From the NCBI GenBank assembly GCA_965223845.1, contig CBDCXR010000004.1:6048001-6112000 (forward strand): a stretch of DNA of 64,000 bases, in the 5' to 3' direction. Below are positions 45,989-62,167 of this stretch, piece after piece. Position 1 is the stretch's first letter, and each line of letters begins with the position of its first letter. The notes under the pieces are model-generated. The model was not told the DNA's origin and ran no database searches. It was given only the letters and a program-made list of their open reading frames with translations. Both the position numbers and the translations under genes were made by a program. The stretch comes from Planctomycetota bacterium. Lineage in GTDB: Bacteria > Planctomycetota > UBA8108 > SXIK01.

Positions 45989-46392
45989 CGTGGATGACTC
46001 GGGCGGAATTGGAGGAGGGATGCCGCACCGGCGGACGCGGCGCTCGCGTCGGGATCGGAGTCGAGCTCCGTCTCGGTTCGAGAGCCTGCCCGCAGCCACG
46101 ATCGGGTCGGTCGGGGCTCGGCCACGGATTAGCGAACTCAAAGCCCACTGCGCACGCAACAGAAAACGCCGCTCGGCAGCCCGCATTTGGCGAGCGTTCG
46201 GGACCGCTCCGGCCGCGCCGGACGGGTCCGATAATCCTCGGTCGCTGAAGGGCCGGAACGCCGCGGGCGTCCCACGTGCGTAGGACGACAGCTCCGGGCG
46301 GCCGTTGTATTCTTCAGTCGAGCCGATCCTTCACCGGCGTCTCTGCCGGGGAATCATCCCGCCGTTCGACCATCTCTGACCCATTCCGCGCC

Positions 46393-47131: not shown

Positions 47132-48124
47132 TCAGAATCTCCGGGTGCGCGCCGGCCGGCCGTCGAGATCGCCGGCGAGTCCGATCACCGCCCACGCCGT
47201 TCCCCAGTACTTCGACGTGGGAAGAACGCGCCGCTTCTTTCGCTCGAGAGTCGACGGCACGGACCATGTTCCGTCGCTCTCTTGGCTCCGCAATAAGTAC
47301 TCTACGGCTCGCGCGATTCCGCGCGTTCGTCGGACGTCGGTGGGTCCGCTCGATGCCGCGAGGCGAAGCACATAGAGGCTTTCTCCCGTTCCGTACGCGT
47401 CGCTCGGATCGCCCTTGAGGTAACCCCAGCCGCCGTCGTCGTTTTGACGCGCGAGAAGCTCCGCGACGAGCTCCCCCGCACGTTCCGACCGCTGCTCGAG
47501 CGCGAGTAAAATGCGGAGCACCATCGCGTCCGTGCTTTGCCGGGCGTCGTCGCCCCCCGCATTCGCTTTCAGCCAAGCGAGTCCTTTCTCCCGAGCGCTC
47601 GCTCGCGCCGGTGGCGAATTCGTCGCGCCGCCGAGCGCGAGAACGGAAAGCGTCGTGCTCACCGCTCGAGCTTCCGTATCGCTCGTCCGCTGGCCGGGAA
47701 GTTGTCCCTGCGGCTTCCACGAACCGTCCGGCGTTTGTGTCGAAACGATGATCTCGCGGAACCGGTTTTTCGTGGCGTCGTCGCGGACGTTGTCGGAGAG
47801 GATGAGCCACGCGAGCCCTTCGGTGTTCCGTTCGCCGACGAGAATGTCCTCGTTCTCGCGCTTCTCGAGGAGCTTCGCGCTCGACCACGTGCGCCAAGCG
47901 TCGAGCTGGTCTGTGTCAACGTCGAGCCCGCTCGATCGCGCCGCGGCGAAGCTCCACAGCATGAACGGAATCTGGTGGCAGGAGTTGCACTCCCGCTTCT
48001 CCATCCACTCGAGACCGTCCGACTCGAGGAAGGGAAGGCTCCGCTCGATCGCGCGGCGGACGTCGGCCGGCGCGTCCGCGGCGAATAGAACGACTGCAGT
48101 TGCCATCAGAATCAGGCGAGACAT
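47132..48124 (-). CDS. secreted prenyltransferase/squalene-oxidase (QW) repeat protein with a CxxCH motif
   Basis: Signal peptide, CNSCH, QTPDGSW, QNDDGGWG, QESDGTW; GGAGG RBS. Confidence 0.85.
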   Translation of the reverse strand: MSRLILMATAVVLFAADAPADVRRAIERSLPFLESDGLEWMEKRECNSCHQIPFMLWSFAAARSSGLDVDTDQLDAWRTWSSAKLLEKRENEDILVGERNTEGLAWLILSDNVRDDATKNRFREIIVSTQTPDGSWKPQGQLPGQRTSDTEARAVSTTLSVLALGGATNSPPARASAREKGLAWLKANAGGDDARQSTDAMVLRILLALEQRSERAGELVAELLARQNDDGGWGYLKGDPSDAYGTGESLYVLRLAASSGPTDVRRTRGIARAVEYLLRSQESDGTWSVPSTLERKKRRVLPTSKYWGTAWAVIGLAGDLDGRPARTRRF

Positions 48125-48752: not shown

Positions 48753-49478
48753 ATGCGTAAGATGTCTCGGGGTCCACTGAGATGTCGGGGCGAGATTCTT
48801 CCGACGGATTTCGACGGCGGGCGCGAAGTAGTTGTGAGTGATCAAGATTGTCGAGACGACTCGGGATCGGATCCCGAATTCGACTTGGTCCGGCAGGCGA
48901 AAGCTGAGGACAAGGAGAGTCTCGGTGATCTTCTCGAGAGACATCGCTACCGAGTGACGTCGCTCGTCTATCTGCGTCGAAGCGATGCGCTGGCGGCAAA
49001 GGTGGAGCTCGACGATTGCGTTCAGGAGGTCTTCCTGCGGGCCATTCGAAGCCTCGATCGATTCGAATGGCGCGGCACGGGATCGTTCTTCCGGTGGCTG
49101 GGCGGCATCGCCGATCACGTGATCAAAGATCTGGCTCGATACCATTTCGGCACCGGACGAGCGAACGAAGTTCGGTTGGAGATCATGCAGCAAAACGGCG
49201 CGGACATTCCCGCCGGAGGGTTGACTGCGAGCGGAGCGGTACGCCGTGACGAGCGTTTCGAGCGCTTGCGCGTTCAGCTTCACGCTCTTCCCGAGGCGTA
49301 TCGGGAAGTGATTCTCCTCGCCCGAATTCGTGGACTTCCGATGCGCGAGGTCGCGATGGAAATGGAACGGTCGGAAGACGCGGTGTCGAGCCTTCTCCGT
49401 CGAGCGCTCGAGAGGCTCGGCGACGGCGGGTGGGGAACCTCGGGCAGCAATCGCCTGCCGCCGCGATCTCTCGACTAG
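48753..49478 (+). CDS. ECF sigma factor (kinase-associated)
   Basis: DDCVQEVFLRA, FFRWLGGIADHVIKD, LPEAYREVILL..GLPMREVA; true start may be GTG 48834. Confidence 0.9.
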   Translation: MRKMSRGPLRCRGEILPTDFDGGREVVVSDQDCRDDSGSDPEFDLVRQAKAEDKESLGDLLERHRYRVTSLVYLRRSDALAAKVELDDCVQEVFLRAIRSLDRFEWRGTGSFFRWLGGIADHVIKDLARYHFGTGRANEVRLEIMQQNGADIPAGGLTASGAVRRDERFERLRVQLHALPEAYREVILLARIRGLPMREVAMEMERSEDAVSSLLRRALERLGDGGWGTSGSNRLPPRSLD

Positions 49479-49584
49479 GCCACGAGCGAGCCACGTGCCG
49501 CGACCGTTGACCGATCCGGGGTAGGCCCTCAGCAAGATCGCGGCGCGATCCGGATTCGACCGGTCGCACACGAGGACGGAAGCA

Positions 49585-52500
49585 GTGCGGGACCACGAAC
49601 TACGAGGTTTGTCGGACGAGCACCGAGTCGACGACCCCGACGCCATCGAAGAGCTCGCGCGCTTCGTGGATCTCTGCGCTGCGGGAGCAGAGGAGGAGGT
49701 TCGCGAGGTTCTCGCCGACCGCAGGGCGCGGGGCGGCGATGGATCCGATCCGCTTCTCCTTTTCGACGAGCTCCGCTGGCTGGTCGAAGAGCGTCCCGTC
49801 CATCTACCCGATGTCGGCGGGTTCGAGGTGCGCCGTGAGATCGGAAGGGGGAGCTTCGGCGTCGTCTACGAAGCGGTCGAGGCCGCTCTCAACCGGCCCG
49901 TCGCGCTCAAGGTCCTCCATCCGGTGCTTGCGAACGATCGCCGCGCCGTCAGCGTCGTCCGCCGTGATGCCCGCGTCGCCGCTCGATTGAACCATCCGAA
50001 CATCGTCCGCGTGCACGGCGCGGGAATCGCCTCGGACGGGTCTCCGTACGTCAACATGGAGCTCCTCGAGGGAGCGACGGTGCGCGAGCTCATCGACGCG
50101 CGCATCGCCGATGTCGGCGAGAGGGAGCGCGCGGCGACGACACCCGAGGAGCGCACGAAGGAGCTGGAGCGACTTCGCGAGATCGCGGGCGCGTTCGCGG
50201 GCGCCGCGCGCGGTCTTCAGCACGCTCACGATCGGTCGGTGGTTCACCGAGACCTGAAGCCGTCCAATCTCGTTCGCGGAGCCGACGGTGAGCTGCGCAT
50301 CATCGACTTCGGGCTCGCGCGCGGGAACGAGTTCTCGCGTCTCAGTGAAACGGGAGAGCGACCGGGCACTCCGCTCTATATGAGCCCCGAGCAAGTCCGC
50401 GGATTGCCGCGCGACGGACGAGGCGACGGCGTTGACGCTTCGGCGGACGCACTCCCCTCGAGTACGGACATCTACAGCCTCGGCGCAACGCTCTACGAAG
50501 TCTGCACGCTGACGCCTCCCGTCCGCAGCGTCGCTCGATCGGCCGTCGAGCACGAAATTCTCAACACCTATCCGCCGCCCGTTTCGGAGCTGAATCCGAA
50601 CGTTCCGACCGAGCTCGAGTCGATCGTACACAAGTGCCTCGAAAAGAGGGTCTCTCGACGATTCGCGACGGCCGAGGCACTCGCGCAAGAACTCGAGCGA
50701 TTCGCTCGCGCGCGTCCCGTGGAGACTCGGCCCGTGTCGGTCTCCACGCGTGCGGTCCGCACATTCTGGCGAGTTCGGCGCCGCGTCGCGATCGGCGGCG
50801 CGCTCGGTCTGGTGGTCCTCCTCTCTGCGGTCGTCTTGACGGAAAGGATCGGAGCCCAAAGAGAGAGAGCGCGTGAGGAGATCGCCCATCGCTGGGAATC
50901 CCTGATGGAGAACGCTCGGGAAGCGATTCTTTGGGAGGAGATTCGCCGCGCGACCGCCGACGCGACCGTGCGCAGTCGCTTCGTTTCGCTGGCGCCCGAC
51001 GAGGAGATCTCCCTCACCGATCCGGTCACGCTCGGCGGATCGCACCGTCTGCTCGATTCCTACGAATCCCGCTTGATTCTCGGATCCGGTAGGCGCGGTT
51101 CCCCGCTCGATCTCGCGGTCGCAACGTCTCGACTCGCGGAGGCCATCGAGCTTCGGCCGGAGGAACCGGATCCCTACGTGCTGCTCGCTCGCCGCCACCT
51201 TCTCGACGGAAACGTGACGGCCGCCTCGCGAGAGATCGAACGCGCGCTCGCTAACCGACCGGACTATGTACCCGCACGAGTTTTCCTCGCATCCCTGCCC
51301 CAGAATGCGACCGAGGTCGACGCCGTGGGCCGCTGGGAGACGAAATGGCGCGAAGCGCTCGATCACGAAGCGAACATGGATTGGCCGCGCGCTTCAAAGG
51401 CCTACGCCGACGCTGCCGCGCTCAGTCCCCGGACCGGAGCCGGCGAGGCCGAGATCGAGCTCAAGGTGAAGAGCTCGCTCGCTCGAATTCGAGCGAACGA
51501 CGAGAGCCTACTCTTCGAGGCGGTGCTCGATCTCTACGAGTGCGTCCTTCGCTGGCCCCATCGAATCGACTCGCAGCTTCTCTTCGCCAAGGCGTGTTTT
51601 CTCTTCGCGGGCGACGAGATCTCGGGCCGCGGTGACGCGGTCCTCGACGGACTCTTCGAGCGAGAGAGCGAGGAAGACCGGCCACCGGTGGTGAGGGCGA
51701 TCGTCGGCCTCTTGCTCGATCTCGGACTCGAAGAGCGGGCCGACACTTGGGCGTCCCGACTGCTTGAAAATGCCCATTCCTATGTCGACCTTGCCGAGGA
51801 AGCGATGCGTCCGCCCGTCGTGCGTGCGATCGTCGGGACGGCGGTCGATGTGGGGCGCGTCGACGAAGTCTCCGAGTGGGTGCCCCTACTCGGCGGAGAC
51901 ATCGACTCGGTTCTCCTCAAGGCGGAGGTGTTTTCCGCCACGGGAGACCACGCGTCGGCGCTGGACGTCTGTGAAGCCGCGCTGAGGTTGGACCCCGCGA
52001 GCGAGCGCGCGCGCTACCGCAGAGCCGAAGTCTTCGCTGCGCTCGGGCGTTTCGAGAACGCGAAACGAGACTTCCTCGACGTGATCGGGACGCGTGGCGA
52101 GTTCGCCGCGGCTGCGCACAACAACCTCGGCACTCTGCTCCATCGCGAAGGTCGATTGCAGCGAGCGGCGCGGCACTATCGCGAGGCCGGACCCCTTCCC
52201 GTCGCGCGGTTCAACCTCGGGTGGATCTTTCACCGCCAGCGCCGTTTCGACGCGGCGGAGAAGGAGTACCGTGCGGCGATCGAGCGTGGATTGGATCTCG
52301 CCGTCATTTACCACAATCTCGGACCGTGTCTCCTCAAACAGGAGAGAGAGGACGAGGCGATCGAGTTCATCGAGCAAGGGCTGGATCTCGAGGAAGACTA
52401 CACCTTGGGCTGGAAGAACCTCGCGACCGCGCACGTCTGGCAAGAGTGGCGAACGAACGACCCGCGAGCGAAGCGACAAGCACTGGATCGCGCCGTGAAG

Positions 52501-54345
52501 GCATGTCGGAAGGTTGCCGAGCTCGAGCCCACGTGGGACGACGCGTTCTATCGTCTCGGGGAAGTGGAAGATCGGGTCGGGAAGAACGAACAGGCGCTGG
52601 CGTCGTATCGCCGCTCGATCGAGTTTGGAGGGCCGGCGAATCTCGCCTACGAGAGTCTCGCGAGATTGCTGCTGCGAACGGATGCGCCGATCCCGATCGG
52701 CGGCGAACTCCGTCGGCAAATCATTCGTTTCGAAGCCGCGGAGGTCGCGCGTAGGCGGTGGAGTAAGACCGCGCAGCTCCTCGCCGCCTATCGGAGCCAT
52801 CTTCCGAAGCACGAACACCCGATCTCGTACGCGTCGGTCGACGCGGAGATCGACGCCCCGGTCGGTTTCCGCCGGGAAGGCGACGCGATGGAGTGGGAGC
52901 TCTTTGAACTCGCGACCGCACCGAGCGGCGAGTGGACGAAGACGAACTTCGTGAGCTCGGAGTGGAGCCGCGTGGAGTTGTCCCTCGCGTACGGCGATTC
53001 GCCGGATCTCGATCCCGACGAAGACACGCCCAAGACGAAGAAGAATCCTTTGGGAGACGGGGTCTCGGGCGTTTGTTTGCGCCGCTCGTTTCGGATCGAC
53101 CAGTCGGCGGGGAAGACGTTCGCGCGGATCGGCGCATCCGTCGGGAAGGACGATGGCTTTGTTGTCTATTTGAACGGCCACGAAGTCTCGCGAACGAGGA
53201 CGGGAGAGACTTGGCGAGCCGAGCTCGCCCTTCCGGCGTACGCGGAGACGAGCAGCGAGGAGTCGAACGACGGCGAGGTCGATTGGAGGTGGATCGAGCT
53301 CCCGGCCCTCTGGCTCGACGAGGAGAACGTGGTCGCGGTGTACGCCGCGACGAGCGAGGGAGATTCGTCGCTCTACGTCGACCTGAAGATCGAACGGTCT
53401 CCACCGACCGATGTCGTCGCGAAGCGCGCCGCTCGGATCCTCGACGGGCTCAGCGGGCGCTCGCCGGAGGATCCCGTCGTCCGCTACGCGGAAGGTAGGC
53501 TGGCGCAGTCGGAGGGCCGACACGACGAAGCGCTTGCGATCTTCGATCCACTCGTCGCGCTCGGGGAAGGCAGCGGCGAGCCGGCGCTCCGCGCGGCCGA
53601 GAGTTTGCGAGCGCTTCAGCGACGAGACGACGCGGAGCGGATGCTCAGCGGCGCGCTCGTCCCAGCGTCGTCCCTGCAGCGAGAGATTTGGCGTGAGTGG
53701 CGCGAGCTCGTCCTCGCAGACTTGCGCTGGACGCCCGAGGAGATTCTCGAGCGAGTCCCGCCGGTCGACGGATCCGCGCCGGAATCCTACGAGGATTTCT
53801 TGTGGGTGGTGGGCGAGCTGGCCGCCGGCCGCGAGATTCGCATCAACTGCGCGGCCGGAGTCGACTACGACGGCGAGGCTGACGCGGCGGACGAAGGTGC
53901 GGAGACCGCGGACATCGAGTGGTGGAGCCGCGAGCGCTTCGTGCACATCAATGGAATCGTGGAGTTTCTGAAGCCGAAGGAGCCGGTGCCCGATCCCGCG
54001 ATCTTTCAGATCTCACGCTCGTTCTTCGCGAGATCGCCGATCATCCCGGGCCTCAGTGTGCCCGTTCCACGCGGTCGATACGCACTCGTTCTGTACTTCG
54101 TCGAGGATTCCGAGGACGACAAGGACCCCAATCGGGACGGGCGCCGGCGCTTCGACGTTCTCGTCGAGGGAAAGACGGAGCTCGAGAATTTCGGCGCCGC
54201 CAGAGAAGCGAACTTCGATGAGATCGTCACGCGCACGATCGAAGTCGACGTAGACGATGGATCCCTCGATGTCGATTTTTTGCGGCGCCTTGGTGATCCG
54301 GAACTGGCTGCATTCACCATCAAGCAAGTCGAGCCGGACCGATGA
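49585..54345 (+). CDS. Hanks-type Ser/Thr receptor kinase: kinase - TM - TPRs - galactose-binding-like sandwich - malectin domain
   Basis: GRGSFGVVY, VALK, HRDLKPSN, DFGLA, GTPLYMSPEQ; TM; TPRs (AHNNLG, YHNLG); DDGFVVYLNG; malectin IRINC..YALVLYFVE..RRFDVLVEG. Confidence 0.92.
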   Translation: MRDHELRGLSDEHRVDDPDAIEELARFVDLCAAGAEEEVREVLADRRARGGDGSDPLLLFDELRWLVEERPVHLPDVGGFEVRREIGRGSFGVVYEAVEAALNRPVALKVLHPVLANDRRAVSVVRRDARVAARLNHPNIVRVHGAGIASDGSPYVNMELLEGATVRELIDARIADVGERERAATTPEERTKELERLREIAGAFAGAARGLQHAHDRSVVHRDLKPSNLVRGADGELRIIDFGLARGNEFSRLSETGERPGTPLYMSPEQVRGLPRDGRGDGVDASADALPSSTDIYSLGATLYEVCTLTPPVRSVARSAVEHEILNTYPPPVSELNPNVPTELESIVHKCLEKRVSRRFATAEALAQELERFARARPVETRPVSVSTRAVRTFWRVRRRVAIGGALGLVVLLSAVVLTERIGAQRERAREEIAHRWESLMENAREAILWEEIRRATADATVRSRFVSLAPDEEISLTDPVTLGGSHRLLDSYESRLILGSGRRGSPLDLAVATSRLAEAIELRPEEPDPYVLLARRHLLDGNVTAASREIERALANRPDYVPARVFLASLPQNATEVDAVGRWETKWREALDHEANMDWPRASKAYADAAALSPRTGAGEAEIELKVKSSLARIRANDESLLFEAVLDLYECVLRWPHRIDSQLLFAKACFLFAGDEISGRGDAVLDGLFERESEEDRPPVVRAIVGLLLDLGLEERADTWASRLLENAHSYVDLAEEAMRPPVVRAIVGTAVDVGRVDEVSEWVPLLGGDIDSVLLKAEVFSATGDHASALDVCEAALRLDPASERARYRRAEVFAALGRFENAKRDFLDVIGTRGEFAAAAHNNLGTLLHREGRLQRAARHYREAGPLPVARFNLGWIFHRQRRFDAAEKEYRAAIERGLDLAVIYHNLGPCLLKQEREDEAIEFIEQGLDLEEDYTLGWKNLATAHVWQEWRTNDPRAKRQALDRAVKACRKVAELEPTWDDAFYRLGEVEDRVGKNEQALASYRRSIEFGGPANLAYESLARLLLRTDAPIPIGGELRRQIIRFEAAEVARRRWSKTAQLLAAYRSHLPKHEHPISYASVDAEIDAPVGFRREGDAMEWELFELATAPSGEWTKTNFVSSEWSRVELSLAYGDSPDLDPDEDTPKTKKNPLGDGVSGVCLRRSFRIDQSAGKTFARIGASVGKDDGFVVYLNGHEVSRTRTGETWRAELALPAYAETSSEESNDGEVDWRWIELPALWLDEENVVAVYAATSEGDSSLYVDLKIERSPPTDVVAKRAARILDGLSGRSPEDPVVRYAEGRLAQSEGRHDEALAIFDPLVALGEGSGEPALRAAESLRALQRRDDAERMLSGALVPASSLQREIWREWRELVLADLRWTPEEILERVPPVDGSAPESYEDFLWVVGELAAGREIRINCAAGVDYDGEADAADEGAETADIEWWSRERFVHINGIVEFLKPKEPVPDPAIFQISRSFFARSPIIPGLSVPVPRGRYALVLYFVEDSEDDKDPNRDGRRRFDVLVEGKTELENFGAAREANFDEIVTRTIEVDVDDGSLDVDFLRRLGDPELAAFTIKQVEPDR

Positions 54346-54382
54346 GGTGGGCTCACGAGGGGGAGCGACTGGGAGGAGGAAA

Positions 54383-55966
54383 GTGAATCTACGCACGCAA
54401 CTGAACAACGGACAGATTCCTTCGAGCCTCGAGGACGGAGGAGGACGGTACGGCCGGCTCTTTCCGGATCTGGCGGCGTGTTCCGCCGACGAACAGCCGG
54501 ATCCCATCGAGCTCGGGAATTTTCTCCACAAGCTCTCGCGCGGCGGCACCACGCCGCCGAACGTCAAAATCGCGGCCGGCTACACCTTCTTCGGTCAGTT
54601 TGTCGTTCACGACTTGACGTCTGATCCGTCCCCCATCGACGAGGTGGCCGATCCCGACGAGATCTACAACCAACGGACCCCGTCGCTCGATCTCGACTCT
54701 CTCTACGGCCGCGGTCCCGAAAGCGAGAGTCGCGATCTCTACGAACCGCCGGAGATCGCGTACGGAAAGTTTCGTCTGGGTCCGACTCGAACGATTCGAT
54801 TCGATTTGCCGCGCGACCGAGACCATCGCGCGTTCATCGCCGACCCCAGAAACGATCACAATCGGGTTCTCTCGCAGCTCCACGTCGCGTTCTTGAAGTT
54901 TCACAACTACGTGATGGATCGCGTCGCAGAGCATCGACCGGACCTGGACGATCGGGAGCGATTCGAGGAGGCTCGGCGGCTCGTCCGCTGGCACTACCAG
55001 TGGATCGTTCGCCACGAATACCTACCGCTCCTCTGTCGACCCGAGGTCCTCGCCGAGCTGGACGAGAACGCGCCGACGTTCTATCGACCGGGCGACGATC
55101 GTTGGCCCTACATTCCCGTCGAGTTCAGCGTGGCCGCGATGCGAGCCGGTCACAGTCAAGTCGGCCGCGGCTACAAGGCAAACGAGATTCAGCCCGCCTT
55201 GCCCGTCTTCGCTCGAGAGGGCCCCGATCTCCGAGGGAACGTCAAGGTCACGAAGGACAAGACGGTGGATTGGCAGCTCTTCTTTCCTCTGAACGGAAAC
55301 ACGAGCCGTCTTCAACTGAGCCGCGGCATCAACACGATTCTCGACTACACCATGCAGGCGCTGCCGGCGGAGACCCTTCCCGCCAGCGACAGCGGCAGTC
55401 GTGTGCTCGGAACGCGCGATCTCGTCCGCGCCCTGAACCGGAACTTGCCCTGCGGCGACACGGTCGCGAAGAAGATCCGGAGCGAGGCCCCGACTTCTTG
55501 GAGAGCCAAGGTGAAGCTCATCGAGAACGACGACCTCTGGCCGGAAGACACGTCGGGGGCGTCGCCCTTCGAGGGAAAGAAACCTCCGCTTTGGTACTAC
55601 GTCCTCCGCGAAGCCGAGCTCCAGGAGCGCGGCGAACGCTTGGGATTTGTCGGGAGCTGTATCGTCGCGGAGGTGATCTGCGGCATTCTGCGGGCGACGG
55701 GAAAGCGCTCCCCCGAAGCGGTTGCGGCGGAGGCGGCACACGACGGGGGACACGACTCGGAGCTCGCCAGAGAATCCGCGGAGAAACGAAAGCGAGCTGT
55801 TCGAGCGCAGAGTCAGGCGGCCCCGGCGAACGAGGCTCCTCCGCGCGAGGAGACTTCGTACTGGGACACCGGCTGGACGCCCGCGGAATCGGTGTGGCTC
55901 GATCCGGAACGGCGAAATCCGGAGGAATTTCGCATTCGGGACTTACTGAGGCTGATCGGGGGTTAG
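54383..55966 (+). CDS. heme peroxidase, peroxidase-cyclooxygenase (animal-type) superfamily
   Basis: GGAGGAGG RBS + GTG; GYTFFGQFVVHD, RTPSLDLDSLYG, DPRNDHN, WHYQWIV, RAGHSQV, PLWYYVLREAE. Confidence 0.9.
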   Translation: MNLRTQLNNGQIPSSLEDGGGRYGRLFPDLAACSADEQPDPIELGNFLHKLSRGGTTPPNVKIAAGYTFFGQFVVHDLTSDPSPIDEVADPDEIYNQRTPSLDLDSLYGRGPESESRDLYEPPEIAYGKFRLGPTRTIRFDLPRDRDHRAFIADPRNDHNRVLSQLHVAFLKFHNYVMDRVAEHRPDLDDRERFEEARRLVRWHYQWIVRHEYLPLLCRPEVLAELDENAPTFYRPGDDRWPYIPVEFSVAAMRAGHSQVGRGYKANEIQPALPVFAREGPDLRGNVKVTKDKTVDWQLFFPLNGNTSRLQLSRGINTILDYTMQALPAETLPASDSGSRVLGTRDLVRALNRNLPCGDTVAKKIRSEAPTSWRAKVKLIENDDLWPEDTSGASPFEGKKPPLWYYVLREAELQERGERLGFVGSCIVAEVICGILRATGKRSPEAVAAEAAHDGGHDSELARESAEKRKRAVRAQSQAAPANEAPPREETSYWDTGWTPAESVWLDPERRNPEEFRIRDLLRLIGG

Positions 55967-56141
55967 GGGCGAGTGCGTTGTGTTCGTTCAGGGCGGAGCG
56001 GCTTTTCAGGCGCCCCCGCGCCCACGCGGCGAAGCCGCGCCGGCTTCACCCGGGCGAGCGAGCTCGCGGTTCCTCTTAGCCCGAACGCGCGTTTCGAACG
56101 AGAAGCGCTTTCTTCAGGAAACATCAGACAGGAGAAGAACG

Positions 56142-56375
56142 ATGTCGACACATCCAGCGAGGCCCTCGACGCCCCCCGCGATGCCGGAGCACCTCCGCGA
56201 GCGAGGAGTACAAGAACTCATGAGCGCGGGAGAGAAGGCGTATCGCGCCGGCTATCGCGAGGGCTGGAGAGCGGGTTGGCGAGCCGGCCTCAGCCAGTAC
56301 GTCCGCCCGGCCGACGGGTCGGCGCCGAATCTCGAAGCCCCTCAGCTCGAAGATGAAGGCGAAGGCGTCGAGTGA
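56142..56375 (+). CDS. 77-aa small protein with aromatic GxxxG repeats
   Basis: AGGAGA RBS; MSTHPARPSTPPAMP...AYRAGYREGWRAGWRAG; stop abuts the next start. Confidence 0.7.
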   Translation: MSTHPARPSTPPAMPEHLRERGVQELMSAGEKAYRAGYREGWRAGWRAGLSQYVRPADGSAPNLEAPQLEDEGEGVE

Positions 56376-56376
56376 G

Positions 56377-57210
56377 ATGGCTCGTCTCATCGCACTGACC
56401 AGTCTCGGATCGTCCGACTATCGTCGAACCGCGGAGCTCTGCCTGCGCTCGCTTCGAACGCACGGGCGCTTCCGCGGCGACATCGTGGTCTTCTCGAACA
56501 ACGACTTCGCCACGGACGATCCGAACGTTCGCGTTCTTCCCGCGCCGGAGAAGCTCGACCGCCGGGCGATGCACGAGTACAAGCCAGCGGCGGCGGCGCA
56601 GCTCGAGACCAGTGGCTATGACCGCGTTTTGGTCATGGACTCCGATATGATCGCGATCGCCGACATCGCACCTCTTTTCGATCTCGCCGACGCGGCGGTC
56701 TGCGGTGTGGAAGAACGGCCCTGGACTCGAATGGTGGACGCCCCCTGCGGTGGGTGTCTGTCCGAGTCCGAGAAGCGAATGGTCGGAGATCGCTGGGGAG
56801 TGAACGGGGGCCTGCTGTGCGCCCCTTCGACTCTCTTTCGTAGGGCGATGTCGCTCTGGTTCTCTGAGATCCGGGCACAGCACGGCCAGCTCAACGAGTG
56901 GCTCGACCAGCCACCGCTCAACCGACTGATCGCGACGGGGCAGATCCCGTTTCGAGCTTATCCGCACGGCTGGGTCGACATGCCACCCATGTATCGATGG
57001 AACGGCGGAGAGTTCCGAGTGACGCACGAGACGAAGCTGCTTCATCTCTGCTGGCCGGATAAGGAGCAAGCCTCCGACGAAATGGAAACTCTGCTCGACG
57101 CGCTCGACGATCGGAGGCTCGAAGCAACTCGAGTTTCTGCGGGGCAGACGTGTGCCGATCCGGGCGTTCGCCCGGGCGGCGAACTATCGACGTCAACTCA
57201 TTCGAGGTGA
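56377..57210 (+). CDS. GT-A fold glycosyltransferase (GT8-like)
   Basis: SLR, YDRVLVMDSDM (DxD), VNGG, WLDQPPLN, LLH. Confidence 0.8.
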   Translation: MARLIALTSLGSSDYRRTAELCLRSLRTHGRFRGDIVVFSNNDFATDDPNVRVLPAPEKLDRRAMHEYKPAAAAQLETSGYDRVLVMDSDMIAIADIAPLFDLADAAVCGVEERPWTRMVDAPCGGCLSESEKRMVGDRWGVNGGLLCAPSTLFRRAMSLWFSEIRAQHGQLNEWLDQPPLNRLIATGQIPFRAYPHGWVDMPPMYRWNGGEFRVTHETKLLHLCWPDKEQASDEMETLLDALDDRRLEATRVSAGQTCADPGVRPGGELSTSTHSR

Positions 57211-57216
57211 GAAACG

Positions 57217-57555
57217 ATGCCTACACCGAAACCGACCTGGGAACCGGGTAAGCTCGAGCGGAATCAGCGCGAGCTGATCGGAATTCCGCGCTGGATCCAA
57301 AACATGATGGAACAGAATGCTCGGCCGTTTTCCGAAGAGTGCTTCTACGAAGGATTCTTCACGGGTTGGGACACGGCGACCGAGCAGTTCATTCAGGCCG
57401 ATATCTTCTATTCCGTGCATTACATTCTCGAAAAGAAAGGCGCGACCGACGACGAGATCACCGTCGCTCTCGATTCCCTTCGCAGCGGTCTCCCGGGGCG
57501 ATTGGGGTATACGAATGGACCGGGGGGGCCATCGACCGGGGGGCTATCTCCCTGA
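57217..57555 (+). CDS. 112-aa small protein
   Basis: GAGG RBS, 6 nt after the GT stop; MPTPKPTWEP...FYEGFFTGWDTA...GPGGPSTGGLSP. Confidence 0.7.
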   Translation: MPTPKPTWEPGKLERNQRELIGIPRWIQNMMEQNARPFSEECFYEGFFTGWDTATEQFIQADIFYSVHYILEKKGATDDEITVALDSLRSGLPGRLGYTNGPGGPSTGGLSP

Positions 57556-58536
57556 TCCAGTGAACGCGGAGCGGTCCGGCCACTCGAGACCGTACCGCTC
57601 CGCGTAATCGAACTCGGTACGCGTGCAATTCCTCAGCACGCAGTCTCGCTCGCGCGCGACGCTCTCCGCCCGCGATTCGAACTCCGCCCACGCTCGCTCC
57701 CAAGTCTCCGGTTCTTCCACCGACTCGGTGTAGCCGACCCACTCGTCGAATACCGCGTCCGAGAAGTTCTTTCTCGCCATGCGCAACTTATTGGCGAGGA
57801 CGCAAACTTCCGTGACGGTGTACCCCTTGAACTCGCTTTGAAAGCGGTGTCCGATCGCGACGCTACCATCGACGAGCGAGTCGTGGCCGCAGAGCCACGC
57901 TTTAAGTCCGAAGTCGATGTCTTCGAGGCCCCATTCCCGCATGTCGGCGTCGAAGCCGCCGAGCCGATGGTAGAGCTCTCGGCTCACCGCGAGGCTGCAC
58001 CCGATCGTTGCCGGGCATTCGAAGTACCGACCTCGCCGCGCTAGCTGCTCCTTCGGAATCCAGGCGCAGTCCATGTTGAGGAGGTTCATGCAGAACCCGT
58101 AGCCGGGAGCGGCGGGAGTGAACTCCCAGGTTTCCGGGTCGACGCCGGGGATTCGGGGGGTCACGAGTGCGCTTCCGCCGAGCTCTTCGATGTCGTCGAC
58201 CAGCTTCGCGATCGCTCCCGGCTCGGGCTTGGTGTGGCCGTCGAGAAACACCAAGGTGTCTCCTCGAGCGGCGCAGGCTCCCAGATGCTTCGTGGGCGAG
58301 GGGCCTCGACGCTTCCCCGATGAGAGGATGCTGATCTCAGGGAAGAACTCCTCTCGCCGCTCACGGCGGAGCCGGTCGAGCTCCGACTCGAGCGCCGCGA
58401 GCGATCCGTCGACGGATTCGTCGTCGGCGACGACGATCTCGTAGTCGAGATCGTCGATGGTCTCGACGCACGTCGTGACCGTTCTCCAGAGAAGATCCCC
58501 TTCGTTGCACGACGCGACGACGATGCTTGCACGCAC
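57544..58536 (-). CDS. GT2-family glycosyltransferase resembling the polypeptide GalNAc-transferase catalytic domain
   Basis: SIVVASCNEG, VADDESVD, GACAARGDTLVFLDGH (DxH), GGFDADMREWGLED, KAWLCG, IGHRF; GGAGG RBS. Confidence 0.88.
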   Translation of the reverse strand: MRASIVVASCNEGDLLWRTVTTCVETIDDLDYEIVVADDESVDGSLAALESELDRLRRERREEFFPEISILSSGKRRGPSPTKHLGACAARGDTLVFLDGHTKPEPGAIAKLVDDIEELGGSALVTPRIPGVDPETWEFTPAAPGYGFCMNLLNMDCAWIPKEQLARRGRYFECPATIGCSLAVSRELYHRLGGFDADMREWGLEDIDFGLKAWLCGHDSLVDGSVAIGHRFQSEFKGYTVTEVCVLANKLRMARKNFSDAVFDEWVGYTESVEEPETWERAWAEFESRAESVARERDCVLRNCTRTEFDYAERYGLEWPDRSAFTGSGR

Positions 58537-58775: not shown

Positions 58776-58930
58776 AAAAAAAGAGCGGTGTCGGCGAGCG
58801 ACACCGCGACCACAACTAACTTCCCGCGTACCGCCGCGAGGCGAGCGGCGGCGATTCTGCGAGCGCTCCACGCAGTCGTTGGTGGAACGGGGAGGCGTCC
58901 ATCCTCTCCATCGTGGTTGCGGTCCGGCGT
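58776..58930 (-). ncRNA. putative structured RNA/leader with intrinsic terminator (element E2, paralogue of E1)
   Basis: Enclosing stem GACCGCAAC / GTTGTGGTC, then a perfect 9-bp hairpin GCGGTGTCG/CGACACCGC + TCTTTTTTT. Confidence 0.45.
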
Positions 58931-59093: not shown

Positions 59094-59960
59094 CTAGCTG
59101 CAAGCGTTTGCTCCGCAGCTCGCCAGCCCGTCGGGGGTCGGGTCGAAGCCGCACTCGCGGATTCCGGGTGGAGGAACCGTGCCTTCGCCGAGAAAGAGCA
59201 CGTTGAAGACGCGGATCGCGTCCGTGATCTCGATTCGCCCGCTGTCGTCGGCGTCCGCGGCGTCGACGCACTCGAGCGGACCGACTCCGAAGAAGGTGTG
59301 ACGAAGGATGCGGATTCCGTCGGTGATGTCGACACGGCCGCCTCCGTCGGCGTCGCCGCGAATGAACCGGCGCCCAGTGAGCTCCAGCCGCGGCGACAGG
59401 GAGAAGTCGGAGCTTTTCATCGCCACGTTGTGGCCTTCGATCGCGATGACGTTGTCGCCGCTCTTCAGCACGGACCGAGCGATCCGGAAACGCTCCGGTG
59501 TTCCCGGTTCGCGCGCTTTGCGCGCGGGGTGGTTGTATTGGAACTCCTCGCCGCGAGCGCCCATCCCCGCTCGCGCGACTTCCCGTCCGTTGATGTACGC
59601 GATGAATCCGTCGTCGTAGTCGATCTCGAGAACGAGTTCCGTAATCGAAGACAATTCCGGAAGCACGAAGCGCTTTCGGATGTACACCGTGAGGTAGTTG
59701 AACTGCATGTCCGAGAGGACCGTAGTGTCGTCTTCGTCGCCGTAGCCGAATCCCGCGGGGCGATACTCCCAGCGACTGTCGTCAAATCCGGGCTCACGCC
59801 ACGCGGTCGACGGTTTCGACGGAGCCGAACGGCCGCGAAAGAGCCGCCACGTATCTTCGAGCGGGATGACGTCTTCCTGCGCGGATGCGGTCCCCGCGAG
59901 CAGAACAACAAGCGAGAGAACGTAGAGAATCGACGCGGCGAGACGATGCGACGTGGACAT
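59094..59960 (-). CDS. secreted galactose-binding-like beta-sandwich protein with C-terminal dockerin-I
   Basis: GGAGG RBS, signal peptide; WREPGFDDSRW..GFGYGD..YIRKRF..DYDDGFIAYING; FIRGDADGGGRVDITD. Confidence 0.88.
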   Translation of the reverse strand: MSTSHRLAASILYVLSLVVLLAGTASAQEDVIPLEDTWRLFRGRSAPSKPSTAWREPGFDDSRWEYRPAGFGYGDEDDTTVLSDMQFNYLTVYIRKRFVLPELSSITELVLEIDYDDGFIAYINGREVARAGMGARGEEFQYNHPARKAREPGTPERFRIARSVLKSGDNVIAIEGHNVAMKSSDFSLSPRLELTGRRFIRGDADGGGRVDITDGIRILRHTFFGVGPLECVDAADADDSGRIEITDAIRVFNVLFLGEGTVPPPGIRECGFDPTPDGLASCGANACS

Positions 59961-59998
59961 TGCGGCCTCCCGTTGGATCGCAGAAGTGGGACGAGTTT

Positions 59999-60028
59999 CA
60001 CTTCCGGATGAACGCGAGGCGTAACGCG
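59999..60028 (-). promoter_or_regulatory. shared upstream motif, copy B
   Basis: Minus strand cgcgttacgcctcgcgttcatccggaagtg; 24/31 identities to copy A by manual alignment. Confidence 0.5.
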
Positions 60029-60091
60029 CGAAGCGGCTGTTCGAGAGATTCGTGCGGTGTTCGATCGAATCGCTTCGAACGAGCGGAAGGG

Positions 60092-62167
60092 CTAGCGAGC
60101 GACCGTTGTCTCGATGAGAAGACGAACGAGCGCCGAGACGTGCTTGGGTGAGGACGCCGTGAGAACGACGCCGGGATCCTTCGCGCTGCGCGCGAGTTGA
60201 ACCTCTCCGCGCGACTCGAACTCGCGGTGCTTGAGGATCTTCGCGTCGGCGAGCACGTCTCGCCCTTCGCAGATCGCGCCGACAACGTGCCCGCGCTGAA
60301 GAAACGCCTCGGTCAACTCGCGAGCCACGACGCCCGTGGGGCTCTTGTGCGTGAACTCGTGGATCTTGCCACCGACGAAGATCGCAGCGTCGAACTCGCT
60401 CGCTTCGACCGTTGCGAGCGAAACGGTCTCGAGGGGCCGATCCTTCTCGCTCTTCTTGCCGCTCGGCTTCGCCCAACCGGCTTTGCTCGAAGCGAGGACG
60501 ACCTCGAGAGAATGTTCGTCGAGCGCGGATGCGAGGGCTCGGTAGTCGGACGAGCTAAACTCCGCATGAGGGAGGACGACGAGGATTCTTCCGGGGCCTC
60601 CGTTTGCGAACTGCGCCGGATGTCCGATGGGCGGTGCCTTCGCGATCGGCGTTGCGGGCTCGGGTTCAGCCGCTGTTTCGGGGCTCGACTCGACCACCTC
60701 CCCGGCTTTGGCGTTGAGTGGAGCCGAAGCGTTTCCCGCGATCTCTCTCCACGCCAGTAGTGTGAGCGCAACGCCGAGCGCGAGGGCGGTGGCCGCGAGG
60801 ACTCGGCGCGGCGTGGAGTGCGCTTTGAGGGAAGCGAGCGCCGACGGCCGGCCGCCGGCGAGAACGGTTTCGAGGTCGTCCGCCGCTTCCTCCATCGAAG
60901 CGAATCGCGCCCCGGGATCCTTCGCGACCATACGGCGGAAGACCGCATCGAGCTCTTCGCTCGCGTCTCGGCGCACGCTCGAGAGCGCAGGCGCGCTTCG
61001 TTCTCGATGAGCCACGAGCTTCTCCACGACCGTTTCGCCCGCGTGAAGGGGCTTTCCCGTGAGGAGGTAATAGAAGGTGCAACCGAGACTGTAGATGTCC
61101 GACCGAGCATCAGCGTTGCGGGAATTGAGCGCCTGCTCGGGAGCCATGTAATCGACGGTCCCCATCACCGTGCTCGTCGTCGTCATGGACGCGTGGCTGA
61201 GCGCGTCCGGACTTCGATCGAGAAACGAATCGAAGCGGGCGAGACCCAGATCGAGAACCTTGATCGATCCGGAATCGTCGAGAAGCAAGTTGTGCGGTTT
61301 CACGTCGCGGTGAACGATTCCTTGTTCGTGTGCGTACTGGAGTGCGCGGGCGGATTCGATCACGAGCCGCAGCGTTTTCTCCAAGGGAAGGGGGCCCTCA
61401 GACGCGACGACCTTGGCGAGATCTCTTCCCTCGATGAGCTCCATCGCGAGAAAGTGGATTCCGCCGGACTCGCCGGCGTCGTGCGCGACGACGATGTTCG
61501 GATGGTGCAGAGTGGCGACCGCGCGCGCCTCGCGTTGAAATCGCTCGACGTGGTCGGGAGATCGACTGCCGGAAGGATGCAGTACTTTTAGGCAGACGAC
61601 GCGGCCGAGGCGGCGGTGTCGCGCTTTGAAGATGCGGCCCATTCCGCCCTGACCGAGCTTCTCGAGGACGACGTAGCTGCCGAGGACGAGCCCCTTCCAG
61701 CGGCCGTGCTTGAGAATCGTCGCTTGGAAGGGGGTTAGTCGTTGGCGCCGGGTGAGCTCGCGCACGAGAGAGTCGGTGTCGCCGTTGGGGAAGGACTCTT
61801 CGAGACGCTCGATTTCGTCCGAAGCGAGTAGGTCGCTTTTTCGAAGGCAGTCGAGAAACACATCGCGCTCGACGGGTTCGACGCGGGGTCGGCGGTCCGC
61901 CTCAGCGCGGGCTCCGTCGACGCCCACCGCGAGGTTCCCCGCCCGGTCGATGAGTCTCCCGAGCATGGACTCCGCCGCAGCGTTGAGAGCCGGGACCGGA
62001 CGACGGAGCGCGCTCACGAGGTGGTCGCTTCGCACGAGGAGATCGTCGAAACGCGCTTGGCAGTTCGGGCACCCGTCCAAGTGTCCCGAAACGGAGAGCG
62101 CTGCCGAGTCGTCTAGCTCTCCGGTCGCGTAACTCGTGAGCGTCGCGTGATTCGGACAGTTCGCCAT
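60092..62167 (-). CDS. Ser/Thr kinase with N-terminal zf-HC2 (ZAS) anti-sigma finger, TM and C-terminal DJ-1/PfpI domain
   Basis: HLDGCPNC; GQGGMG, HRDVKPHN, DLGLA, GTVDYMAPEQ; TM; EFDAAIFVGG..GAICEG. Confidence 0.92.
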   Translation of the reverse strand: MANCPNHATLTSYATGELDDSAALSVSGHLDGCPNCQARFDDLLVRSDHLVSALRRPVPALNAAAESMLGRLIDRAGNLAVGVDGARAEADRRPRVEPVERDVFLDCLRKSDLLASDEIERLEESFPNGDTDSLVRELTRRQRLTPFQATILKHGRWKGLVLGSYVVLEKLGQGGMGRIFKARHRRLGRVVCLKVLHPSGSRSPDHVERFQREARAVATLHHPNIVVAHDAGESGGIHFLAMELIEGRDLAKVVASEGPLPLEKTLRLVIESARALQYAHEQGIVHRDVKPHNLLLDDSGSIKVLDLGLARFDSFLDRSPDALSHASMTTTSTVMGTVDYMAPEQALNSRNADARSDIYSLGCTFYYLLTGKPLHAGETVVEKLVAHRERSAPALSSVRRDASEELDAVFRRMVAKDPGARFASMEEAADDLETVLAGGRPSALASLKAHSTPRRVLAATALALGVALTLLAWREIAGNASAPLNAKAGEVVESSPETAAEPEPATPIAKAPPIGHPAQFANGGPGRILVVLPHAEFSSSDYRALASALDEHSLEVVLASSKAGWAKPSGKKSEKDRPLETVSLATVEASEFDAAIFVGGKIHEFTHKSPTGVVARELTEAFLQRGHVVGAICEGRDVLADAKILKHREFESRGEVQLARSAKDPGVVLTASSPKHVSALVRLLIETTVAR

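Follow-up and report, generated by a model that had tools for sequence, protein, structure and literature searches.

An ECF sigma factor-kinase locus of a planctomycete with a GalNAc-transferase-like enzyme and small Thr/Pro-tailed proteins: recurrence and a possible role

In the window, that is, the whole stretch of 64,000 nucleotides that was analysed, we confirmed the cluster of seven open reading frames reported by the first-pass annotation. All seven are present and closely spaced, and they are listed here with two neighbouring features.

48753-49478, plus strand: ECF sigma factor, 241 aa (Sigma70_r2, r4_2 and Sigma70_ECF; N-terminal extension of ~48 aa)
49585-54345, plus strand: Hanks Ser/Thr kinase (STK), 1586 aa (Pkinase, aa 80-368)
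54383 (GTG)-55966, plus strand: heme peroxidase (POX), 527 aa (PF03098, E 3.4e-23)
56142-56375, plus strand: s77, 77 aa; T/S-P-rich N-terminal tail, then the aromatic-Gly motif YxxGYxxGWxxGW
56353-57210, plus strand: GT8-like protein, 285 aa; alternative start at the in-frame ATG 56377; alone, no Pfam match
57217-57555, plus strand: s112, 112 aa; PTPxP-type N-terminal tail, helical core with an aromatic-Gly motif, G/P/S-rich C-terminal tail
57544-58536, minus strand: GT2, 330 aa; PF00535 and PF02709, GT27 (polypeptide GalNAc-transferase)-like catalytic domain
58785..58807, minus strand: terminator-like hairpin upstream of GT2 (9-bp stem with 7 G-C pairs, then a T run)
59094..60080, minus strand: possible associate, a secreted or anchored protein with the same beta-sandwich-like module as the kinase ectodomain

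The GTG start of the peroxidase lies exactly 37 nt past the kinase stop (had the gene started at the ATG 54257, further upstream, it would overlap with the kinase gene), s112 and GT2 converge with a 12-nt overlap, and the plus-strand spacing is operon-like, from a 23-nt overlap up to a 175-nt gap. The hairpin lies between GT2 and the adjacent minus-strand ECF2-STK2-o460 unit. The domain calls made earlier (ECF, TM kinase with TPR and malectin, animal-type heme peroxidase, GT8-like enzyme and ppGalNAc-T-like GT2) hold as well, and so does the reported lack of signal peptides in the peroxidase and the small proteins; no N-terminal hydrophobic segment was found in POX, s77, the GT8-like protein, s112 or GT2.

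The best NCBIfam name for the sigma factor is Sig-70_plancto1, with a score under that model's cut-off, and the protein is 40-43% identical to the ECFs of two other GT2-linked loci (L227, L228). The kinase has one TM segment (aa 401-419) and is thus single-pass, with a cytoplasmic kinase domain and an extracytoplasmic part made of TPRs (about aa 770-1030), an unnamed beta-sandwich-like module and a C-terminal Malectin domain (aa 1492-1565, Pfam E 1.9e-8). The module at ~aa 1080-1290 had been called a sugar-binding sandwich; it recurs in secreted dockerin proteins, but no Pfam domain name was obtained for it. Full-length homologues of the kinase, at ~29-31% identity, occur at L016, L120, L227, L228, L231 and L232. 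According to the text of PMC7826278 and PMC11032199 available to us, an ECF gene directly beside a membrane kinase with a large ectodomain is common in Planctomycetes, and the window pair resembles in this respect the ECF-Hanks kinase pairs of groups ECF43, ECF59-62, ECF217, ECF267 and ECF283. In the same text, however, the conserved neighbours named for those groups include no glycosyltransferase, no peroxidase and no small T/P-tailed protein.

The best PDB matches of GT2 include GalNAc-T12, T10 and T9, with E values reaching 1e-20. Every one of its closest relatives of solved structure is a polypeptide GalNAc-transferase, and its DxH, WGxE and GH motifs (metal and Gal/GalNAc-T) line up with theirs. 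Longer homologues of GT2 carry (SP)n or S/T-rich tracts immediately past the GT domain, and 40 of the 72 homologue ORFs of at least 450 aa reach at least 40% S/T/P in some 60-aa window. Judged from these comparisons, GT2 looks like a peptide-modifying enzyme. No promoter motif common to the GT2 upstream regions was found. The GT8-like protein has 171 homologues at E <= 0.001; PF01501 is matched by 25 of the 41 aligned family members, DxD is invariant, and the family profile matches LgtC, LARGE1, glycogenin and GlyE. Its AF2 model has a pLDDT of 90 with retaining GT-A enzymes as best fold matches, so that profile and model together predict a divergent GT8-type retaining GT-A glycosyltransferase.

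The window peroxidase belongs to the bacterial 'short peroxicin' type of short heme peroxidase, within the peroxidase-cyclooxygenase superfamily, and shares ~40% identity with many proteins named 'heme peroxidase family protein' in bacteria. In size, domain content and catalytic residues it matches the short bacterial peroxicins (family 5 of the superfamily), retaining the distal Gln/His, the catalytic Arg and the proximal His. Both heme ester-link positions are substituted, by Val and His, and it is therefore not expected to halogenate. The short peroxicin family is widespread in bacteria (581 confirmed loci), and its role is called 'completely unknown' in the part of a review available to us (PMC4420034). 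The window gene sits in a kinase/ECF operon, unlike the family members at the best 80 loci from other phyla, near which none of the other cluster genes was found.

The two small proteins belong to a family of 70-130 aa in which a T/S-P-rich N-terminal tail is combined with an aromatic-Gly helix (YxxGYxxG; GX3/YG-box-like). The family is defined by short motifs, the mean column identity of its alignment being 18%, and database searches gained no more members. Pfam matches of s77 are to glycine-zipper families and sub-threshold only. In the AF2 model of s112, helices are predicted at aa 13-20, 25-34, 40-73 and 78-91 and disorder at aa 1-12 and 96-112. GC by codon position fits coding in both (s77 0.74/0.58/0.72, s112 0.57/0.48/0.68). 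Between the small ORFs of L228 and L159, 43 of 71 aligned residues are identical and nucleotide differences by codon position are 21/12/32, a pattern by which these ORFs look coding; the pair from L231/L232 differs at 5/6/3 positions, without a third-position excess. Several members (L227, L228, L159, L120) end in a Gly-zipper TM helix behind basic residues, which would fit a tail-anchored protein with a cytoplasmic N-terminus; the helix is absent in half of the members.

We found the same neighbourhood elsewhere. A conserved core, made of an ECF sigma factor, a ~1600-aa membrane Hanks kinase, a GT27-like GT2 and a small protein adjoining GT2, is present at 13 loci that count as independent once near-identical contigs are merged: the window, L120, L016, L227, L228, L229, L231/L232, L127/L128, L159, L161, L167/L171, L177/L178 and L132. 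Of these, L120 is a second core copy within the window's own genome. The ECF and/or kinase is seen at 12 of the 13, the exception being L132, where GT2 begins 280 nt from the contig end. A T/S-P-tailed small protein adjoins GT2 at every core locus, which strengthens the earlier idea that the small proteins are substrate-like. At 12 of the 13 the two genes lie tail-to-tail (gaps of ~10-90 nt, or a 12-13-nt overlap), and this conserved convergent orientation means that they are not co-transcribed. A scan for small ORFs having both an S/T-P-rich N-terminus and an aromatic-Gly motif was positive at 15 of the 17 GT2 loci linked to an ECF/kinase or a peroxidase (245 kb) and first detected the small proteins of L159 and L161, in comparison with 1 of the 67 remaining GT2 loci (619 kb), 2 of 80 other-phyla peroxidase loci (1.2 Mb) and none of the 9 further peroxidase loci from planctomycetes. 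Judged by its motifs, the small protein is specific to the ECF/kinase-GT2 setting, a contrast that is partly circular since the pattern was written after most members were known.

The expectation that the genes would co-occur elsewhere was borne out for the core and for the full set, the latter in G005, a genome from another family of the same order in which kinase, peroxidase, small protein, GT2, GT8 and ECF lie within 10 kb in a gene order that differs from the window. It was not borne out for the peroxidase and GT8 as core members: the peroxidase occurs at 3 and GT8 at 2 of the 13 core loci, and 10 of 13, several of them short contigs, have neither. GT8 occurs in both genomes with the whole set and only where the peroxidase occurs. 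Similarity between the window GT8-like protein and the G005 GT8 is weak (E 1e-4, in the region of the DxD motif), and the two may for this reason not be orthologues. Within the phylum, a short peroxidase at E <= 1e-20 is present in only 9 of 401 sampled genomes, and its distance from GT2 is at most 2 kb in G000, G005 and the metagenome contig L132, where GT2, small protein and peroxidase are consecutive. In a quick tree the three GT2-linked peroxidases do not cluster; that of L132 falls in a different clade (SH-aLRT 98) and that of G005 is an unresolved long branch. The link of the peroxidase to GT2/ECF-kinase loci is not random, and the gene set as a whole, recurring in other genomes, is beyond chance. 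No published description of the module was found in the literature searched.

With gene anatomy, enzyme families, catalytic motifs and neighbourhood recurrence observed as above, we infer all substrate relationships and regulatory wiring as follows. The window may be an enlarged copy of a conserved planctomycete-type four-gene module in which cytoplasmic O-glycosylation of small-protein tails is linked to the kinase and ECF, a reading to which we assign a probability of about 0.5. The kinase would sense an extracytoplasmic cue and then act on the ECF, as known from other ECF/kinase pairs. GT2, the GT27-like enzyme, would add an O-glycan to Thr/Ser of the small-protein tail in the cytoplasm; glycosylation of these T/P-rich tails by this mucin-type transferase is probable. 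The acceptor would be a small cytoplasmic or tail-anchored protein, with two gene copies in the window (s77 and s112). There the GT8-type enzyme may extend the first sugar, and the short peroxidase may add an oxidative step, either on aromatic residues of the small proteins or in peroxide handling.

Known systems offer partial parallels. The GT27 mucin-type system shares with the window the catalytic domain (E 1e-20), aligned DxH, Gal/GalNAc-T and His motifs and, in the candidate tails, Thr/Ser-Pro-rich acceptors, but GT2 has a bacterial host, is probably cytoplasmic rather than lumenal, and has neither ricin-type lectin domain nor membrane anchor. In Dictyostelium and Toxoplasma, Skp1 is glycosylated on hydroxyproline in the cytoplasm, with a ppGalNAc-T-like enzyme acting first and a GT8/glycogenin-like enzyme later, after an oxygen-dependent step. 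By analogy the window has a small cytoplasmic protein, ppGalNAc-T-like and GT8-type enzymes and a candidate oxidative enzyme, and the Skp1 alpha-galactosyltransferase (PDB 6mw5) is among the profile matches of the GT8-like family; however, Skp1 and a prolyl hydroxylase are absent, the oxidative enzyme is a heme peroxidase, and any tie to oxygen sensing would be pure speculation. Streptococcal serine-rich repeat adhesins are O-glycosylated stepwise in the cytoplasm by GtfA/B and then by GT8 and GT2 enzymes. The S/T-rich segments and the putative stepwise use of GT-A enzymes including GT8 are similar (GT8 entry 5gvv is also a profile match), whereas the window lacks a GtfA/B-type initiator, an accessory Sec system and a large adhesin, its candidate acceptors being of the 70-130-aa class.

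The first-pass annotation had proposed a glycan-sensing circuit whose O-glycosylated small proteins are Tyr-cross-linked by the peroxidase into a RiPP-like compound or a coat/matrix; its domain calls and, in part, its co-occurrence stand, the peroxidase and GT8 are not core genes, and its product is not supported. We consider this version quite unlikely, even though the kinase does carry a malectin domain, S/T-P tails and aromatic-rich motifs occur together in the small proteins, and peroxidase, two GTs and small Tyr/Trp-rich proteins recur in G005 and partly in L132. We saw no sign of a RiPP or of a matrix product for export: the cluster has no transporter, leader peptidase or precursor-like leader, and peroxidase, GTs and small proteins lack signal peptides. 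Moreover, most core loci lack the peroxidase, and that of G005, like the window's, lacks both ester-link residues of halogenating relatives. Cross-links through Tyr, a glycan-sensing role of the malectin domain and the analogy with extensins are putative parts of this version. The plant axis of malectin-like receptor kinase, extensin and class III peroxidase does recall the malectin-type kinase ectodomain, S/T-P-rich Tyr-containing small proteins, peroxidase and glycosyltransferases, but by analogy only, as the window peroxidase is of a different superfamily, the setting is cytoplasmic rather than wall, and the small proteins are not homologous to extensins.

It is somewhat unlikely, in our estimate, that the small proteins are instead regulators or adaptors of the ECF/kinase pair, either as kinase substrates or as a membrane-tethered partner holding and releasing sigma, with GT2 tuning them (O-glycosylation versus Thr phosphorylation) or having another acceptor. 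ECF and kinase are constant partners of the small gene, the tails are Thr-rich, the Gly-zipper ends suit tail-anchored proteins, and kinase-paired ECF groups are described, in the text of PMC7826278 available to us, as having no known anti-sigma factor; against this, an anti-sigma domain is absent (zf-HC2 is confined to STK2 of the adjacent unit), a TM helix is missing from half of the family, and the GT27-like enzyme accompanies the small gene as constantly as the kinase does. Rearrangement could also have joined two unrelated modules (ECF-kinase-peroxidase, and ECF-kinase with GT2 and small protein), leaving peroxidase and GT8 functionally unlinked to GT2 and the small proteins and the peroxidase as a peroxide-stress output of the sigma factor. 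Each module does occur apart, as ECF-kinase-~175 aa-peroxidase in five more planctomycete genomes (L213, L216, L217, L218, L219) and as the GT2 set without peroxidase in L120, L227-L229 and L231/L232; the window and G005 differ in order, and elsewhere the peroxidase keeps varied company, such as GH31 with a galactose-oxidase-like protein (L214) or a ferritin-like protein (L215). The merger, however, occurs three times, in differing gene orders and with peroxidases that do not cluster, which fits repeated recruitment better than one accident, and the confinement of GT8 to peroxidase loci and the operon-like spacing also make this account unlikely.

Next to the cluster, the 59094..60080 protein matches kinase ectodomains by tblastn. 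Its Dockerin_1 match is weak (E 0.16), and it matches a metalloprotease-dockerin protein of L132 at E 2.6e-44.

The cluster lies in a genome of 7.9 Mb with 65% G+C, and a second ECF/kinase unit follows it on the minus strand. The features are listed below.

48753-49478 (+), ECF sigma factor
49585-54345 (+), kinase, then a 37-nt gap
54383-55966 (+), peroxidase with GTG start, then a 175-nt gap
56142-56375 (+), small protein s77, overlapping the next gene by 23 nt
56353-57210 (+), GT8-like enzyme (alternative in-frame ATG start at 56377), then a 6-nt gap
57217-57555 (+), small protein s112, convergent 12-nt overlap with the next gene
57544-58536 (-), GT2, tail to tail with s112
58785-58807 (-), strong terminator-like hairpin between GT2 and the next minus-strand unit
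59094-60080 (-), o460, with a beta-sandwich-like module common with the first kinase's ectodomain and a weak dockerin match
60092-62167 (-), kinase STK2, with a zf-HC2 zinc finger of anti-sigma type at the N-terminus and a DJ-1/PfpI domain at the C-terminus
62264-62953 (-), ECF2, a second ECF sigma factor, paired with STK2

Pfam and NCBIfam confirmed the ECF sigma factor, the kinase with its TPRs and malectin domain, the An_peroxidase domain and the GT2. The gene calls of the first-pass annotation were found in place, together with the 37-nt kinase-peroxidase gap and the convergent s112/GT2 overlap that it described. The kinase gene begins after a gap of 106 nt downstream of the ECF gene, as in an ECF sigma-Hanks kinase pair (Pfam, NCBIfam), and the top NCBIfam name of the sigma factor is Sig-70_plancto1, with a score under its cut-off. 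This name, together with nearby dockerin and ECF families, suggests a planctomycete host. In the hydropathy scan the kinase has a single TM segment (aa 401-419), and an N-terminal hydrophobic segment is absent from the peroxidase, the GT8-like protein, GT2, s77 and s112, which bears out the earlier remark that the peroxidase and small proteins have no signal peptides. GC by codon position fits a coding nature of both s77 and s112.

We rejected GT2 as part of the ECF2-STK2-o460 operon, because the hairpin lies between them and in other loci GT2 stands beside the long-kinase type. The match of o460 to longer peroxidases of related genomes was also set aside as carrying no specific link; what they have in common is the dockerin domain, and for this reason these peroxidases are peroxidockerin-type. 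Upstream of the cluster the genes are ordinary ones: the minus strand encodes a biosynthetic arginine decarboxylase (43889-46186) and a protein with squalene-hopene-cyclase-type repeats (47132-48124), and the plus strand an M50B-like peptidase (46276-47106).

The closest solved structures to GT2 are all polypeptide GalNAc-transferases, led by GalNAc-T12 (1e-20) and followed by T10, T9, T4, T1, T7 and T2. Its FLDGH pairs with FLDCH of GalNAc-T12 (6pxu), the DxH metal motif of the GT-A catalytic domain; EWGLEDIDF pairs with VWGGENLEF, the Gal/GalNAc-T motif of WGGEN type, and IGHRF with VGHVF, which contains the downstream metal-binding His. The metal-binding and Gal/GalNAc-T motif residues, including the Asp and His of DxH, are invariant across 5 homologues, and GT2 matches PF02709 at E 1.1e-7. 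The protein has 330 aa, with no further Pfam domain C-terminally and no hydrophobic segment in the hydropathy scan, and so has neither a ricin-type lectin domain nor a type II membrane anchor. Catalytic-domain motifs and best structure matches agree with its first description as a ppGalNAc-T-like GT2. Judged from these sequence features, it is a GT27 (polypeptide GalNAc-transferase)-like catalytic domain, with GalNAc transfer to peptide Ser/Thr as its putative activity. Of 72 long homologues of 450 aa or more, 40 contain a 60-aa stretch in which S, T and P make up at least 40%, often as (SP)n straight after the GT domain, and the 605-aa GT2 of loci L174/L176 has C-terminal P/T/S-rich repeats; these tracts hint at a GT domain that may act on S/T-P-rich peptide. 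Our literature search found no assigned role for bacterial GT27-like enzymes, and excerpts of one paper tabulate a single GT27 gene in one planctomycete (PMC5352709). A dedicated small acceptor encoded beside GT2 would make a bacterial GT27-like enzyme directly testable in E. coli with mass spectrometry.

In order to assess how far the gene set recurs, we consider the peroxidase and the GT2 in turn. Among 60 near relatives, a peroxidase match better than 1e-30 was found only in G005, a genome of the same order and another family, whose locus L016 has the whole set inside 10 kb. Its 1622-aa kinase is homologous to the window kinase across most of its length and has the peroxidase directly downstream; its small protein has an initial T/P tail and two aromatic-Gly motifs, its GT2 is convergent and 41% identical to that of the window, its GT8 is bona fide (PF01501, 1.1e-36) and its ECF is divergent. 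In a survey of 401 genomes of the phylum, with only five candidates scored per genome, strong GT2 matches came only from the window's own genome (two copies), G005, G061, G271 and G420; within the class, 8 of 59 genomes have a GT2 match at E <= 1e-40. A long kinase directly adjoins GT2 in L120, the second copy of the window's genome, and in loci of G009, G002, G017, G024 and G026, and these kinases are 29-31% identical to that of the window, over the whole 1600 aa where the contig permits. In L120, L227 and L228 the ECF gene lies between kinase and GT2, divergent from the latter.

A metagenome scan with the GT2 alignment gave 79 loci. In most of them the GT2 proteins are long and multidomain (500-2800 aa), often with several in one locus, and no ECF or kinase is near; in a subset (L127/L128, L159, L161, L167/L171, L177/L178) a short GT2 adjoins an ECF and/or kinase gene. 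The peroxidase is present in exactly one of the 79 (L132). No common promoter motif was found upstream of 13 GT2 genes, and the word GGAATCC occurs upstream of only two of them (L227 and L228). The core module repeatedly has a secreted HExxH metalloprotease of 640-1113 aa encoded nearby (L120 1926-4112, L127 1987-4269, L161 2520-4436, L177 5330-7252, L229 3746-5674, L227 12056-13348 and L132 4847-8188), and several of these enzymes end in a dockerin. In L127, L161 and L177 the metalloprotease gene is divergent from the small gene. Such a protease may be the extracellular output of the module or its cue.

Wherever a short GT2 neighbours an ECF or kinase gene, a small ORF adjoins the GT2, tail to tail in 12 of 13 independent loci and co-directional in L132; in L230 (G016), where the contig stops 226 nt upstream of GT2, no small ORF was recognised. 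All of the small proteins begin with a Thr/Ser-Pro-rich tail (alignment consensus M-x4-PTPxP), followed by an aromatic-Gly repeat with consensus YxxGYxxGxxxGFxxG. Those of L227, L228, L159 and L120 have a Gly-zipper TM helix at the C-terminal end, those of L016, L132, L171 and L177 carry two motifs and lack a TM helix, and the window has two one-motif genes, s77 and s112. The results of a pattern scan are as follows.

Pattern scan for small proteins. The GT2 groups leave out L172, L174 and L176 (long GT2 near kinase).
ECF/kinase- or peroxidase-linked GT2 loci: 15 of 17 loci in 245 kb, 19 matches, 3 of them away from GT2
Other GT2 loci: 1 of 67 in 619 kb
Peroxidase loci of other phyla: 2 of 80 in 1.2 Mb
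Other planctomycete peroxidase loci: 0 of 9 in 133 kb

The contrast between these groups is overstated, because the pattern was written with most members already in view; the scan also revealed two members not previously seen, L159 and L161. Nucleotide differences counted by codon position fit coding sequence in the pairs L228 versus L159 (21/12/32) and L177 versus L161 (37/35/53), and do not fit it in L231 versus L232 (5/6/3). The AF2 model of s112 (mean pLDDT 73) has a helical core between a disordered tail (aa 1-12) and a disordered C-terminus, and its long helix at aa 40-73 bears the aromatic-Gly motif. The Pfam matches, all below threshold, were to glycine-zipper families (Yae1_N, SMN YG-box and DUF2799). 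The best E values for PF09811 (Yae1_N) were 0.0059 (L229) and 0.028 (L228), with scores of 14.6-16.7 bits where the cut-off is 27.5, and s77 and s112 gave no PF09811 match. The likeness to Yae1_N or GX3 glycine-zipper proteins is one of motif alone. A word-based search with s112 returned only itself, the 13-sequence alignment retrieved one additional 80-aa protein, and the ESM Atlas held nothing at or above 0.9 for the family.

At E <= 0.01 Pfam returns nothing for the window GT8-like protein itself. An exhaustive search gave 171 relatives at E <= 0.001, and 25 of 41 aligned homologues match PF01501 (Glyco_transf_8). The family profile matches LgtC at 5.8e-6, and also LARGE1, WbbM, glycogenin, the streptococcal GT8 entry 5gvv and Skp1 alpha-galactosyltransferase. 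The DxD of a GT-A fold is present as D96 and D98, invariant in 41 sequences. The AF2 model (pLDDT 90.2) has a retaining GT-A fold, and its top Foldseek matches are ABO/GT6-type retaining GT-A enzymes (E 4e-13, TM about 0.6), not GT8.

The 527-aa peroxidase belongs to a very large bacterial group of 450-500-aa enzymes, with 2077 relatives at E <= 0.001 among 8000 candidates scored and 581 loci confirmed in one scan of genome contigs. Its closest homologue, P0002, is 50% identical and comes from a 47-kb contig. Each of 27 sequences has Q72, H76, R156 and H257 (distal Gln and His, catalytic Arg and proximal His). With PF03098, these catalytic residues and no extra domains, the enzyme corresponds to the short peroxicins (family 5 of the peroxidase-cyclooxygenase superfamily). 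In halogenating relatives, besides the Glu of an R-x-x-E motif, we take the Asp preceding the distal His to be the other heme ester-link position. The window enzyme reads VHD for DHD, the Asp position being the one assumed here, and RNDH for RNDE (Val and His), and that of G005 reads AHD and RNDQ (Ala and Gln); unlike short peroxicins with ester-linking Asp and Glu, both have lost the two residues, and the heme of the window enzyme is predicted to be bound non-covalently. The Asp is also lost in four of nine further peroxidase loci of the phylum. The Glu motif is that given in excerpts of a 2015 review, which describes the physiological role of short peroxicins as one that 'is completely unknown' (PMC4420034).

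A short peroxidase at E <= 1e-20 is present in only 9 of the 401 sampled genomes, and the nine further loci come from seven genomes. Five of these (L213, L216, L217, L218 and L219, from planctomycete genomes of different families) have on one strand an ECF gene (PF07638), a kinase of 760-970 aa with FGE-sulfatase ectodomain, a 160-190-aa protein and the peroxidase; Pfam matches confirm both ECF and kinase in L213, L217 and L219, and the kinase in L216. The middle protein is poorly conserved and has no family assigned, with a YYY.D...WC stretch common to three of the five. In L220 peroxidase, ECF and kinase are close together, and in L212, L214 and L215 the peroxidase has other neighbours. In a quick tree the kinase-linked peroxidases are unresolved long branches. 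Their repeated position behind ECF/kinase pairs gives a concrete setting for studying short peroxicins. As the peroxidase occurs elsewhere with separate ECF-kinase modules, both the window and G005 appear to unite two recurrent modules at a single kinase/ECF pair. As side observations, the peroxidase domain of L212 (G433:C1, 8657-11311) makes up the C-terminal half of an 884-aa ORF, with no Pfam match in the other half, and in L214 (G420, 1522-5795) the genes after the short peroxidase encode a GH31 enzyme and a galactose/glyoxal-oxidase-like protein, a possible peroxide source.

Established here are anatomy, families, motifs and recurrence alone. We give a probability of roughly 0.5 to the reading that the conserved unit is a kinase/ECF-linked cytoplasmic O-glycosylation, in which a small glycine-zipper protein would be the dedicated acceptor and the GT27-like enzyme would modify its T/P tail, with GT8 and peroxidase as extras. 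In the window, the acceptor would be supplied as two genes, s77 and s112, the GT8-type enzyme would lengthen the glycan, and the peroxidase, as a non-halogenating heme enzyme, might add an oxidative step. If instead the window joins two functionally unconnected modules, the peroxidase and GT2 would have come together by merger alone; the separate occurrence of each module speaks for this and the repeated merger, seen also in G005 and L132, against it, and we hold it to be unlikely. The first-pass annotation had proposed a glycan-sensing circuit that makes O-glycosylated, peroxidase-cross-linked small proteins. The co-occurrence that it named as a check stands in part, with the whole set in G005 and GT2, small protein and peroxidase in L132, whereas tblastn found no GT2, GT8 or small-protein homologue in the 80 best peroxidase loci of other phyla, and the association is therefore specific to this lineage. 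The same 80 loci gave one weak ECF match, one weak TPR-region match and kinase-domain matches in three (L040, L057 and L075). We consider a cross-linked product improbable. The known glycosylated peptides also differ: glycocins and glycosylated RiPPs have a leader, a SunS-type GT, an exporter and a thiol-disulfide set, whereas the small proteins here start straight with the T/P tail with no leader peptide, and the Pfam results for the cluster and its flanks include no SunS-type GT, C39-peptidase ABC exporter or thiol-disulfide enzymes.

The small proteins could also be regulators of the sigma factor or the kinase, which we find doubtful, though conceivable; they accompany ECF or kinase genes, and it is GT2 that they adjoin. 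The predicted s77-s112 complex scored 0.06 against a mark of 0.34, a value that carries no weight for or against contact between the two proteins. A quite unlikely variant of the O-glycosylation reading is a cytoplasmic, mucin-type switch, in which the GT27-like enzyme and the Hanks kinase would compete for one Thr-Pro tail and the small glycine-zipper protein would gate the ECF, some genomes adding GT8 and a non-halogenating heme peroxidase as an oxidant-dependent layer. If true, it would give bacteria of this lineage an equivalent of O-GlcNAc/phosphate cross-talk or of Skp1 glycosylation.

According to excerpts of earlier work, ECF/kinase pairing is established for groups ECF43, ECF59-62, ECF217, ECF267 and ECF283 (PMC7826278), and kinases of the phylum with TPR or sulfatase-modifying ectodomains have been described (PMC11032199). 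In full-text literature and the ECF review PMC8103513, a search that covered main texts, we found no description of ECF/kinase pairs with GT27-like genes, small T/P-tailed proteins or short peroxidases. ECF/kinase pairs in general are very numerous in Planctomycetes, with few outputs known, and the window pair has a conserved and unusual neighbour set.

Long GT27-like homologues with (SP)n or poly-Ser right after the GT domain were also seen in L123, L125, L129, L131, L141, L187 and other loci (metagenomes and G420), often several per locus. In L121 (G271:C10, 553-5187) a 1012-aa protein with a long S/N/G/P-rich linker has the GT27-like domain at its N-terminus. The C-terminal ~95 residues of this protein are found again in an orphan fragment (4100-4396) that lies amid three paralogous 121-aa ORFs, a layout that resembles polymorphic-toxin/immunity cassettes.
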